IMG/VR virus record: IMGVR_UViG_2585427758_000006
Source of the DNA: a virus
Lineage: Duplodnaviria > Heunggongvirae > Uroviricota > Caudoviricetes
Strand: one strand, 5' to 3'
DNA: 20,920 nt
Positions 6,337 through 9,028 of this stretch are shown one piece after another (positions within the stretch are counted from its first letter, which is position 1; every line of letters starts with the position of its first letter). The notes beneath the pieces were generated by a model. It had not been told where the DNA came from and made no database searches. It saw only the letters and a program-made list of their open reading frames with translations. The translations under genes were made by a program, and so were the position numbers.

Positions 6337-7646
6337 AAGAGGTGGGCTGGACCAGCCTGTTTCAGGCGGTGGCTGAGCCCTTTGCTGGCGCCTGGCAGCA
6401 GGGTGTGAAAGCCGATCCGGAAAGTGTCCTCTCCTTTCATGCGGTGTTTTCTTGCATTTCGCTGATATCCCAGGATATCGCCAAAATGCGGCTGCGCCTG
6501 ATGCAGACGGATACACAGGGGATCCGCTGTGAAAAACGGCAGGGGGATATTGCCCGTCTCTGTCGTCGTCCCAATGCACAGCAGAATCGTATCCAGTTTT
6601 TTGAACTGTGGCTGAACGCCAAACTGCGTCACGGCAATACGGTGGTGCTGAAAATCCGTAACTCCCGGGGGCAGATCAAAGAACTGCGTATTCTGGACTG
6701 GAGCCGGGTTGAACCTCTGGTGGCGGATGACGGCGAGGTGTTCTATCGCATCACGCCGGACCGGAACTGCGGGATCACGGAGGCGGTGACGGTGCCTGCC
6801 CGGGAAGTGATCCACGACCGGTTTAACTGTTTTTTTCATCCGCTTGTGGGGCTGCCGCCGGTGTATGCCGCCGGGCTGGCGGCCACGCAGGGGCATCATA
6901 TTCAGGAAAATTCGACGTCTTTTTTCAGAAATGGCGGCAGGCCGTCCGGGGTGATTGAGATCCCCGGCAGTATTACGGAAGAAAATGCGAAAAAACTGAA
7001 GAGCAACTGGGACAGCGGGTATACAGGCGAAAATGCGGGGAAAACGGCCATTCTGAGCAACGGGGCAAAATACAACCCCACGACGTTTTCACCGGTGGAT
7101 GCGCAGACGGTGGAACAACTGAAGATGACCGCTGAAATTGTCTGTTCGGTGTTCCGTGTCCCGGCCTACAAGATTGGCGTTGGCCAGCCACCTTCCAGTG
7201 ACAACGTGGAGGCGCTGGAGCAGCAGTATTATTCCCAGTGCCTGCAGACGCTGATTGAGTCCATTGAACTGTTACTGGATGAGGCGCTGGAAACGGGGGA
7301 AAACGAGAGTACGGAGTTTGACGTCACCACGCTGCTGAGAATGGACAGCGAACGGCGCATGAAAACGCTGGGTGAGTCGGTGAAAAATACGCTTCTCACG
7401 CCCAATGAGGCCCGTAAACGTGAGAACCTGCCGCCCCTTGCGGGAGGTGATGCACTGTATCTTCAGCAGCAGAACTACAGTCTGGAGGCGCTGTCCCGTC
7501 GTGATGCCCGTGAAGATCCGTTCGCGTCGACCGGGAAAACGGCCTTAGCGCAACCGCCTGACGGCGCATCTGACGGTAATAAGGCAATCACTGAAACAGA
7601 GCATGGTGCGGTGAAGGCGATGTTCAGGGGGATTCTGAAAAAATGA
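6282..7646 (+). CDS. Portal protein (HK97-like family)
   Basis: 454-aa ORF with portal-like segments (...FSCISLISQDIAKMRLRL..., ...GVIEIPGSITEENAKKLKSNWDSGYTGENAGKTAILSNGAKY..., ...LKMTAEIVCSVFRVPAYKIG...). The exact start is uncertain. Confidence 0.85.
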   Translation: MWNLLRRTRKNQKSGRDVKEVGWTSLFQAVAEPFAGAWQQGVKADPESVLSFHAVFSCISLISQDIAKMRLRLMQTDTQGIRCEKRQGDIARLCRRPNAQQNRIQFFELWLNAKLRHGNTVVLKIRNSRGQIKELRILDWSRVEPLVADDGEVFYRITPDRNCGITEAVTVPAREVIHDRFNCFFHPLVGLPPVYAAGLAATQGHHIQENSTSFFRNGGRPSGVIEIPGSITEENAKKLKSNWDSGYTGENAGKTAILSNGAKYNPTTFSPVDAQTVEQLKMTAEIVCSVFRVPAYKIGVGQPPSSDNVEALEQQYYSQCLQTLIESIELLLDEALETGENESTEFDVTTLLRMDSERRMKTLGESVKNTLLTPNEARKRENLPPLAGGDALYLQQQNYSLEALSRRDAREDPFASTGKTALAQPPDGASDGNKAITETEHGAVKAMFRGILKK

Positions 7647-9028
7647 ATGAACGTGAACTGTCCATTATCCGTGCGCTGGGTGAAGAATTCGCCACGGTGC
7701 TGGCGGATTTACAGCGCACATTTGAGGGGAAGATGGCCTCGCAGGCACAAGCGTTTGAAGAGAAACTGACTTCCCTGTCGGCGGTATTACAGAAGCATGT
7801 GACGGTGGATGAGGTGCGTCCGGTTCTGCAGGCGATGGTGGATGACGCTGTGGGGGCCATTCCGGTACCGCGTGATGGTCGTGATTATGATCCGGATGTA
7901 CTGCAGCAGGCGGTGAATGATGCGGTCGCAAATATTCCGCAGCCGGCGGACGGTAAAAGTCTCACCCCGGATGATGTGCGTCCGATGCTTGAACAGATGG
8001 TGAAGGAGGCTGTAAGCCATATCCCTGTTCCGCGTGATGGTCGTGACTACGATCCGGAAGTACTGCAGAAGGCGGTGAATGATGCGGTCGCAAATATTCC
8101 GCAGCCGGCGGACGGTAAAAGTCTCACCCCGGATGATGTGCGTCCGATGCTTGAACAGATGGTGAAGGAGGCTGTAAGCCATATCCCTGTTCCGCGTGAT
8201 GGTCGTGACTACGATCCGGAAGTACTGCAGAAGGCGGTGAATGATGCGGTCGCAAATATTCCGCAGCCGGCGGACGGTAAAAGTCTCACCCCGGATGATG
8301 TGCGTCCGATGCTTGAACAGATGGTGAAGGAGGCTGTAAGCCATATCCCTGTTCCGCGCGACGGTCGTGACTATGATCCCGATGTTCTGCAGAAGGCGGT
8401 GAATGATGCGGTCGCAAATATTCCGCAGCCGGCAGACGGTAAAAGTCTCACCCCGGATGATGTGCGTCCGATGCTTGAACAGATGGTGAAGGAGGCGGTA
8501 AGCCATATTCATGTTCCGCGTGATGGTCGTGACTACGATCCGGATGTTCTGCAGAAGGCGGTTCTGGATGCGGTGAGTGCCCTGCCGGCTCCGCAGGACG
8601 GGCGTGATGCCACGGCTCTGGAAATACTCCCCGCCATTGACGATCAAAAATCCTTTCCCCGGGGCACGTATGCCACACACCAGGGCGGACTCTGGCGGGC
8701 GTATGAAAAAACGCACGGGATGCGGGGATGGGAATGCCTGGTTGACGGGGTGGCGGATATTGACGTCAGCATGACGGGTGAGCGGTTGTTCTCTGTGGTG
8801 GTCCGGCAGAGCAGTGGCCAGCGTACGGAAAAAACATTTTCCCTGCCGGTGATGCTCTACCGCGGTGTGTTCAGAGCCGGTGAAACCTACCACCCCGGCG
8901 ATACGGTGACGTGGGGGGGCTCGCTGTGGCACTGCAACAGTATGACCGAAGATAAACCCGGAGAAGCTCATTCATCAGCCTGGACCCTGGCTGCAAAACG
9001 TGGGCGGGATGCAGGAGGCGGAAAATGA
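7643..9028 (+). CDS. Repeat-containing virion structural protein of unknown function (possible head decoration or fibre protein)
   Basis: ATG overlaps the portal stop (ATGA). Predicted coiled-coil N-terminus, then about 4.5 tandem copies of a 54-aa unit (IPVPRDGRDYDPEVLQKAVNDAVANIPQPADGKSLTPDDVRPMLEQMVKEAVSH), then a ~150-aa Gly/Trp-containing C-terminal domain. Sits between portal and head-tail connector. Confidence 0.7.
   Translation: MNERELSIIRALGEEFATVLADLQRTFEGKMASQAQAFEEKLTSLSAVLQKHVTVDEVRPVLQAMVDDAVGAIPVPRDGRDYDPDVLQQAVNDAVANIPQPADGKSLTPDDVRPMLEQMVKEAVSHIPVPRDGRDYDPEVLQKAVNDAVANIPQPADGKSLTPDDVRPMLEQMVKEAVSHIPVPRDGRDYDPEVLQKAVNDAVANIPQPADGKSLTPDDVRPMLEQMVKEAVSHIPVPRDGRDYDPDVLQKAVNDAVANIPQPADGKSLTPDDVRPMLEQMVKEAVSHIHVPRDGRDYDPDVLQKAVLDAVSALPAPQDGRDATALEILPAIDDQKSFPRGTYATHQGGLWRAYEKTHGMRGWECLVDGVADIDVSMTGERLFSVVVRQSSGQRTEKTFSLPVMLYRGVFRAGETYHPGDTVTWGGSLWHCNSMTEDKPGEAHSSAWTLAAKRGRDAGGGK
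7808..8623 (+). repeat. Intragenic tandem repeat, 162-bp unit, about five copies
   Basis: Unit starts at 7859, 8021, 8183, 8345 and 8507, exactly 162 bp apart; copies 2 and 3 look identical by eye, copies 1 and 4 differ at a few positions; degenerate partial units flank the array. Confidence 0.9.

Follow-up and report, generated by a model that had tools for sequence, protein, structure and literature searches.

A repeat-containing gene linked to the portal gene in Shiga toxin phage-type prophages and its candidate role as a portal-vertex accessory fibre

The viral DNA IMGVR_UViG_2585427758_000006, a stretch of 20,920 nucleotides that was analysed at its full length and is called the window here, is the late region of an Escherichia coli lambdoid prophage of the long-tailed Shiga toxin (Stx) phage type, and its closest relatives are classified as Pankowvirus and Marienburgvirus. 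Between the gene of an HK97-family portal protein and that of a gp6-like head–tail adaptor (Ad1), the slot that the initial annotation of this DNA had assigned to it, lies an open reading frame (ORF) of 461 amino acids that contains an array of tandem repeats (Table 1). The stop codon of the portal gene (TGA, 7644–7646) overlaps the start of this repeat ORF, and the ATG of Ad1 (9025–9027) overlaps its stop codon (9026–9028) in an ATGA. We found that the repeat ORF is a genuine gene that is translated separately; it is not a fragment of a broken portal gene, and it does not correspond to any canonical head protein.

The anatomy of the array was established at both the nucleotide and protein levels. 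Tandem Repeats Finder reported a period of 162 bp with 4.3 copies, 96% matches and a score of 1285 at 7868–8562, and a repeat search returned four in-register copies with a spacing of 162 bp. Units 2 and 3 (8021–8344) do not differ at any of their 162 bases, exact matching at an offset of 162 extends over at most 289 nt, and the remaining pairs of units share 93–96% identity. Each unit of 54 amino acids is made up of two related half-repeats, IPVPRDGRDYDP followed by a helix and then IPQPADGKSLTP followed by a helix, and the half-repeats of the stalk so formed are 27 amino acids long, each with a short helix and a PxPxDGxD turn. The ORF, the program output and the dissection of the units agree with the initial annotation on the 162-bp/54-amino acid unit, on the presence of two identical copies and on the two halves of each unit; its “about five copies” was a fair approximation of what are four full and two partial units. 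An antisense ORF of 394 amino acids (7787–8971, − strand) spans the whole array and is probably a by-product of the stop-poor repetitive sequence; the + strand frame is favoured over it by homology, synteny and the evidence of selection.

The copy number of the unit shifts in clean 162-bp steps. Among 99 IMG/VR contigs with a complete ORF, the lengths fell into classes of 245, 299, 353, 407, 461, 515 and 569 amino acids, which correspond to 0 to 6 units, and this comparison across related prophages, proposed along with the initial annotation, demonstrated that the array varies in copy number. A few ORFs (325 and 379 amino acids) fell short of a class by about half a unit, and others, also few, were truncated. 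In phage records and in complete E. coli genomes, the matching DNA was 1386, 1224 or 1062 bp long. Phage BP-4795, which was sequenced by the Sanger method, and complete E. coli genomes contain the same array, and the repeats are therefore not the assembly artefact that had earlier been considered. Many homologues from Klebsiella, Enterobacter and Salmonella are cut short by the end of a contig, which indicates that short-read assemblies break in the repeat array. Orthologues from these genera (e.g., P0189 and P0195) are named “phage gp6-like head-tail connector protein, partial” at NCBI; they have the normal C-terminal end and no gp6-like domain.

The C-terminal domain, which forms the tip of the protein, carries two motifs of the carbohydrate-binding module (CBM) 5/12 type. 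The first is located at about residues 341–366 (...YATHQGGLWRAY..T.G..GWEC) and the second at about residues 405–450 (YHPGDTVTWGGSLWHC...W.L), with the signature Y.PGDTVTWGGSLWHC...KPG....W.L. The Trp, Tyr and Gly residues and two Cys residues of the tip are invariant or nearly so in the family alignment, and orthologues from Klebsiella, Salmonella and Enterobacter (60–70% identity) carry precomputed PF02839 hits. When the C-terminal 162 residues were modelled with AF2 from an alignment of 40 sequences, the mean predicted local distance difference test score (pLDDT) was 85, and in the full-length model it was ~95 for the tip (residues 330–452) and ~84–94 for the N-terminal helix (residues 3–51). 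The tip shows the small beta fold with conserved surface aromatics that is the criterion for CBM5/12 modules. Foldseek matched it to the tail fibres of Agrobacterium phage 7-7-1, to chains of the Milano baseplate receptor-binding complex and to tandem-CBM chitin deacetylases, and in BFVD to phage proteins annotated as collagen repeat, CBM5/12 or ChiC_BD. The fold matches also include chitin-binding CBM5/12 domains and the phage receptor-binding fibre protein Pa193 gp47. Furthermore, the last part of the domain is homologous to the “tail fiber” PHROGs 5073 and 26419. The ratio of nonsynonymous to synonymous substitution rates (dN/dS) in an anchored alignment was about 0.15–0.3, on small counts, and by this measure the C-terminal domain is under purifying selection. 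These results together assign the tip to a carbohydrate-binding-type fold common to phage fibres. When the PDB was searched by sequence with the protein and the family profile, the matches were confined to designed helical repeats and a CBM-like stretch of 34 residues in Anabaena All3316; there is no solved homologue of the repeat ORF.

The stalk is acidic (pI 4.4, against 4.8 for the whole protein) and was modelled by AF2 as alternating helices of 13 and 17 residues with linkers of the form PxPxDG(R/K)(D/S)..P; in the monomer, eleven helices split by 12-residue linkers were predicted with low confidence. The N-terminal helix is amphipathic with a hydrophobic period of 3.6 residues, a value that was reached by 13 of 1000 shuffles. 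Its start, MNERELS.., is conserved in standalone relatives, and the helix is presumed to be an anchor or oligomerisation segment. The architecture is modular: collagen GXY repeats replace the helix repeats in P0240, P0238 and P0422 (PF01391 or Scl-like hits), many relatives have a collagen-like tail added after the domain, and others have a different C-terminal domain. The window protein itself has no uninterrupted GXY run of the collagen type (PF01391), only isolated DG(R/K)D turns.

The extent of the family and its gene contexts were then considered. An exhaustive phmmer search of 1.84 billion cluster representatives returned 5,576 clusters (50% identity) at E ≤ 1e-3 and 635 at E ≤ 1e-30, and the lengths in the best 150 of the 5,576 ranged from 85 to 1237 amino acids, the shortest being fragments. 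At the profile level, the repeat ORF matched phrog_2271 (positions 527–859, E 0), phrog_1289 (E 3.6e-214) and, with its C-terminal domain, phrog_16748 (E 5e-97), and the distant relatives match the same PHROGs. In the contexts of full-length members that were examined, which cover eight HK97-type and four lambda-type modules, the gene always begins where the portal gene ends or right behind it; the overlap with the portal stop is 4–29 nt, except in a Rhizobium phage with a 4-nt gap. The order in HK97-type modules is TerL, protease–capsid fusion, portal, the repeat-ORF family gene and Ad1. In lambda-type modules it is gpA-like TerL, gpW-like, PF05136 portal, the family gene (here a sub-family with a different C-terminal domain), S49 protease, gpD-like HDPD decoration and E-type capsid. 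P0424, a match that shares the tip domain only, is found in a different gene context. Because the portal, protease and capsid families differ between these modules and the lambda-type ones have a decoration protein of their own, the constant partner of the family is the portal and not the capsid lattice. The initial annotation had suggested a surface fibre or decoration protein; the former is plausible, and the linkage to the portal together with the gpD-like gene argues against general capsid decoration.

The known families of this region were also searched for in the repeat ORF. It has no match to PF04860 or TIGR01537, and the whole portal domain is in the upstream 454-amino acid ORF; the “portal” label given to the repeat ORF in databases derives from fused alleles and from the naming of PHROGs 2271 and 1289. 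Pfam searches gave no hit to the MuF domain PF04233 at E ≤ 0.01 and none to gpD/HDPD PF02924 or Hoc-like Ig, and no NCBIfam family was matched. Matches to TetR_C_35, Glycos_trans_3N, DUF4244, FliG_N, iPGM_N, Maf_N and FeoC were rejected, as they were weak scores summed over the repeats and zero stretches pass alone. Many homologues (e.g., P0003 and P0039) carry the precomputed Pfam accession PF28083.1. A well-characterised scaffold or tail-fibre homologue, which had been put forward as evidence that would speak against the initial annotation, was looked for and none was found.

The relation of the repeat ORF to the portal depends on a run of G in front of it. With five G (G5, 7627–7631), as in the window, there are two genes with an ATGA stop/start overlap, and with six (G6) there is one reading frame; junction alignments showed that this one-base difference is the only cause of the split versus the fused state. 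The fused coding sequence (CDS) of 913 or 859 amino acids in DEC4E and phage 2851 is annotated “phage portal protein”, a peptide across the junction of the fused form would span ...FRGDTEKMTERE..., and PHROG 2271 is an 859-position “portal protein” profile that covers both window ORFs. The exact 454-amino acid portal protein of the window is itself present in public collections as “phage portal protein”. Exact-pattern scans of IMG/VR found G5 in 95 contigs and G6 in 41. Of 60 E. coli records taken at even intervals down the ranking, 36 showed no net insertion or deletion against the window in their coordinate spans, and 24 showed +1. The G5 form occurs on several sequence backgrounds (the window, BP-4795, Stx1_14040, PE164, F8704-2 and NE 1169-1), and BP-4795, with the same split arrangement, was deposited as a complete Stx1-converting phage genome. 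The GenBank record of phi330 was left out of this evidence, as several of its morphogenesis genes are fragmented and it has extra indels near the junction.

In other genera, the position of the G-run is occupied by AGAGGA, AAGGAG, AAGGA, GGAG or GAGGA, about 8–12 nt before the start codon. This ordinary Shine–Dalgarno sequence indicates that AGGGGG is the ribosome-binding site of the downstream gene, and G6 is a one-base insertion inside it. Standalone homologues with the N-terminus M(N/D)ERELS.. were found in Salmonella, E. albertii, Klebsiella, Citrobacter and Enterobacter, and distant standalone members in Salmonella phage FSL SP-016, Rhizobium phage RHph_X2_26, Pseudomonas phage IME307 and metagenomic contigs. 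A portal domain is present in just two of the 150 best clusters, that of E. coli and P0335. Since a separate gene with a ribosome-binding site of its own is present in the other genera, the split two-gene form is the ancestral one, and the “frameshifted pseudogene” call in RefSeq is wrong; PGAP labels the G5 loci “phage portal protein; frameshifted” (e.g., L009 7738–10322, L010 1736–4320 and L005 2640–5303). Programmed frameshifting at the G-run (−1 in G5, +1 in G6) was rejected as a conserved mechanism, because the other genera have no slippery run there, just an ordinary Shine–Dalgarno sequence equally far from the ATG. The initial annotation had rightly stressed the repeats and their variability, and it had overlooked the in-frame fusion to the portal (859–913 amino acids) in many E. 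coli relatives.

The fused alleles retain the ribosome-binding site and the ATG, and so a free product could still be made from them. The C-terminal 140 codons of the window gene are nucleotide-identical to those of the fused DEC4E and 2851 alleles, which indicates that the split and fused states occur on recombining and otherwise equivalent backgrounds. A second lineage with the portal fused to a family member is represented by P0335, a metagenomic cluster representative of 1237 amino acids, in which ~20 LPEPEPLPDI-plus-helix repeats are followed by the same CBM-like domain. P0335 has a Met at the likely original start, which suggests that the fusion arose independently.

Table 1. Features of the window around the repeat ORF and of the late genes upstream and downstream of it.
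Feature	Position	Strand	Remarks
IS1 transposase ORF	48–551	+	PF03400, E 2e-78
HNH endonuclease	1192–1557		
TerS	1848–2411		
TerL	2408–4069		
Prohead-protease/major-capsid fusion, 645 amino acids	4133–6070	+	
73-amino acid ORF	6115–6336	+	phrog_829, no assigned function; between capsid fusion and portal genes
HK97-family portal, 454 amino acids	6282–7646	+	PF04860, E 2.9e-80; TIGR01537 portal_HK97, E 1e-105
AGGGGG Shine–Dalgarno sequence of the repeat ORF	7626–7631	+	11 nt upstream of the ATG
Repeat ORF, 461 amino acids, ATG start	7643–9028	+	PHROG 1289 family
N-terminal amphipathic helix region, residues 1–54	7643–7804	+	AF2, hydrophobic periodicity
Half-repeat-like lead-in, residues 55–72, VDEVRPVLQAMVDDAVGA	7805–7858	+	
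Four full 162-bp/54-amino acid tandem units, residues 73–288	7859–8506	+	
Degenerate first half of a fifth unit, residues 289–315	8507–8587	+	Joins stalk to C-terminal domain
C-terminal beta-rich domain, residues 316–461	8588–9025	+	Two CBM5/12-like motifs
gp6-like head–tail adaptor Ad1	9025–9351	+	PF05135, phrog_40
Head-closure protein Hc1	9361–9711		

The other genes of the window are those of the late region. In the 645-amino acid ORF, an S78 prohead protease is joined to an HK97-type major capsid protein by a linker with a weak coiled-coil match. This fusion lies upstream of the portal, an uncommon order of genes whose conservation extends from enterobacteria to phages of Rhizobium and Pseudomonas. 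The conserved 73-amino acid ORF overlaps the portal start by 55 nt, and an ORF at the equivalent position is annotated in E. coli relatives. A GGAGG ribosome-binding site is found within the last codons of the repeat ORF (9014–9028), ahead of Ad1; the DEC4E and 2851 alleles stop two codons sooner, where a G-to-T change makes TGA. Hc1 is followed by gp10-like, tail terminator, major tail protein, G/T chaperones, tape measure, M, L, K and I genes, and the J gene continues past the window end. A PF06222 tail assembly chaperone (11245–11667, +) and a PF06223 T-like ORF (11691–11972, +) resemble the lambda G/GT arrangement. Near the 3′ end of the TerS gene there is a 27-bp tandem duplication (2291–2344; 2.0 copies, 81% matches; AAAAGGGGACACCGCGAAAAAAGCGGC). 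At its 5′ end the window carries the IS1 ORF, immediately before the HNH/terminase region of the prophage, and this position suggests an insertion sequence that entered the late or lysis region.

The best explanation of these findings, to which we give a rough probability of 0.45, is that the repeat ORF encodes an accessory fibre of the portal vertex with a glycan-binding head. The N-terminal amphipathic helix of ~50 amino acids would dock the protein at the portal vertex and/or drive its oligomerisation, and the length-variable acidic stalk of 27-amino acid half-repeats, here with four full units of 54 amino acids, would bear the tandem CBM5/12-like beta domain at its tip. The product would be a thin accessory fibre at the portal/neck vertex, probably trimeric, whose carbohydrate-binding head could adhere weakly and reversibly to polysaccharides, e.g., glycans of the cell surface, mucus or matrix. 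The number of repeats may set the reach of the fibre, and unequal recombination or slippage between the near-identical 162-bp units would change the array length. In many E. coli prophages, the G5-to-G6 change in the ribosome-binding G-run joins the ORF to the portal reading frame. We infer external exposure and glycan binding from the CBM5/12 motifs, the collagen variants, the swapping of tips and the tail-fibre homology, which favour an exposed accessory fibre, and attachment at the portal/neck vertex from the gene linkage; the trimeric state is suggested by the collagen-bearing relatives only.

Several observations weigh against an external fibre. PF02839 scored 20.6 bits on the window protein (residues 411–433) against a cut-off of 26.2, the stalk of the AF2 monomer is of low confidence (pLDDT 50–70), and the period of 3.6 in the N-terminal helix is not a clean heptad (3.5). 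The paper on phi330 and its supplement report no mass-spectrometry result for the repeat ORF protein (PMC12502783). Fusions that continue the portal C-terminus in frame are common, with 41 among 136 IMG/VR contigs and about 24 among the 60 complete genomes sampled, and one of them is in the record of phage 2851, which was deposited as a complete genome. The C-terminus of the portal faces the capsid interior in solved portals, and thus the fused polypeptide cannot make an external fibre, for which the retained internal ribosome-binding site and ATG would be needed. The fusion itself points to an internal location.

An internal protein tethered to the portal is the main alternative, even if we consider it somewhat unlikely. 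Its N-terminal helix would be bound or fused to the interior C-terminal tail or crown of the portal, and up to 12 flexible acidic chains would extend into the capsid, where they might serve in DNA organisation or retention or be ejected as cargo; this arrangement would recall the barrel of the P22 portal or the SPP1 gp7/MuF proteins that bind to the portal. The frequent and apparently tolerated portal fusion, with its second lineage in P0335, would be accounted for in this way, and the identical flanks of split and fused alleles, including the 140 codons shared with DEC4E and 2851, make the switching look nearly neutral. The position directly after the portal is that of MuF/gp7 genes, in lambda-type modules the gene is among the prohead genes between portal and protease, and a short amphipathic C-terminal segment ends the portal in all lineages. 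An internal protein explains the tolerated covalent fusion but not the tip: the CBM5/12-type module, the collagen variants and the swappable tips are hallmarks of exposed fibres with no obvious use inside a capsid. Fusions are, moreover, rare outside E. coli (2 of the 150 best clusters), a stalk with a pI of 4.4 would be unfavourable beside packed DNA, and there is no MuF domain. In siphophages the DNA end fills the portal/tail channel, and the ejection of trimeric or beta-domain cargo before the DNA is hard to picture. That the family constitutes a previously unrecognised class of portal-tethered virion component, with the one-base change in the G-run as a natural toggle between free and fused forms, seems to us rather unlikely.

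The remaining explanations differ in what they make of the portal linkage. A head fibre or decoration protein binding the major capsid lattice throughout, like phi29 gp8.5 and SPP1 gp12, would leave the adjacency to the portal as inherited synteny. Its fibre-like architecture and collagen variants resemble these two head fibres, and a strong ribosome-binding site of its own could raise its expression well above the portal level, but the gene follows the portal in two types of head module with unrelated capsid and portal families, the lambda-type module already has a gpD-like protein, and fusions are made to the portal and never to the capsid protein; we regard this as improbable. We give even less credence to a factor acting in assembly only, as a portal chaperone or a scaffold-like bridge from the portal to the protease–scaffold–capsid fusion protein, which the prohead protease would remove and mature virions would lack. 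It would suit a helical and acidic product, like scaffolds and delta domains, that is encoded among prohead genes in a head module without a separate scaffold gene. The linker in the 645-amino acid protease–capsid fusion, however, already supplies the scaffold function, and lengths from 245 to >860 amino acids among relatives, the CBM-like domain, collagen variants and swappable tips are atypical of scaffolds with constrained dimensions. Both the capsid-wide and the assembly-only roles are less likely than an exposed fibre or an internal protein. Finally, the RefSeq/PGAP view takes the repeat ORF as a C-terminal extension of the portal and the two-ORF state as a frameshift pseudogene or a homopolymer sequencing error, on the strength of the “frameshifted” annotation of G5 alleles, the fused CDSs of 859–913 amino acids in DEC4E and the phage 2851 record, and the fusion modelled in PHROG 2271. 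The split form with its own Shine–Dalgarno sequence and ATG is nevertheless the rule across genera (148 of the 150 best clusters), and G5 is the majority form in IMG/VR (95 versus 41 contigs). It is also present in the Sanger-sequenced BP-4795 and many independent complete genomes of different backgrounds, and the downstream ORF is intact and under purifying selection, all of which leaves this view hardly credible.

The repeat ORF protein is encoded in 1,246 of 5,426 complete E. coli genomes (about 23%), including Stx1- and Stx2-converting phages of enterohaemorrhagic E. coli. Literature searches on BP-4795, Stx virion proteomics and related topics found no characterisation of it, and a paper on Pseudomonas AH14a describes a MuF-type module and not the repeat ORF family. 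The plaque-forming Pankowvirus phi330 has a 55-nm head, a 145-nm tail and OmpC as receptor, and its virions were analysed by mass spectrometry, of which podophage protein maps only are shown (PMC12502783; data in PRIDE PXD061229). Several prophages of O157 Sakai were scored defective in portal or head functions by Asadulghani et al., without detail on the repeat ORF (PMC2669165), and part of this scoring may reflect the portal/repeat-ORF split.

The protein, with relatives in 5,576 clusters and diverse hosts, has no assigned function and is systematically mislabelled. Its status as a separate gene corrects a recurrent “frameshifted pseudogene” call in RefSeq that could inflate the counts of “defective” prophages, and defines a new and testable candidate for a portal-vertex component in a widespread head module, for which stalks of 0 to 6 units and free versus portal-fused forms offer a natural series for experiments on structure and adsorption. 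A phage accessory fibre with a glycan-binding tip would be of a known kind, its notable features being the conserved linkage to the portal gene and the one-base toggle between free and fused forms. Binding of the tip to glycans of the host or the mucosa, if it occurs, could influence which hosts Stx phages infect or how long they persist in the gut. If the protein is inside the capsid, up to twelve flexible, length-polymorphic filaments with carbohydrate-binding heads would project from the inner face of the portal, an arrangement with no described counterpart, and genomes that are almost identical would yield virions of different architecture according to whether the allele is split or fused.

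The repeat ORF shares features with several known systems. Like T4 fibritin (wac), it has a presumed N-terminal anchor, a stalk predicted as helices interrupted by loops and a small C-terminal folding or binding domain, it would be an accessory low-copy fibre of the head–tail junction, and its gene is just upstream of neck/adaptor genes. Unlike fibritin, it has a tandem CBM5/12-like tip, stalk segments of 13–17 residues and possible fusion to the portal, and it has no sequence or fold match to fibritin or foldon. The tip resembles the CBM5/12 (PF02839) modules of chitinases and phage tail fibres, with a Pfam score in the window below the gathering threshold, and differs from plain CBM5/12 in that two modules are embedded in a domain of ~130 amino acids with two invariant cysteines. 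As with SPP1 gp7/Mu gpF (MuF), the gene directly follows the portal, is sometimes fused to it and encodes a conserved N-terminal part, a variable linker and a variable C-terminal domain, but a repeat or collagen stalk and a carbohydrate-binding-type tip take the place of the globular MuF domain with toxin cargo. The long helix after the portal C-terminus in fused alleles recalls the barrel of P22 gp1; here, however, the helix is normally a separate polypeptide, amphipathic with a period of 3.6 residues and without evidence of a 12-helix barrel, and it is followed by short helices separated by Pro-rich turns and by a beta domain. phi29 gp8.5 and SPP1 gp12 are trimeric accessory head fibres with helix-turn or collagen stalks that are dispensable for assembly, and relatives of the repeat ORF likewise carry collagen GXY repeats. 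Unlike these fibres, which occupy many sites of the capsid lattice, the repeat ORF family stays with the portal gene across unrelated types of capsid and is found alongside gpD-like decoration genes.

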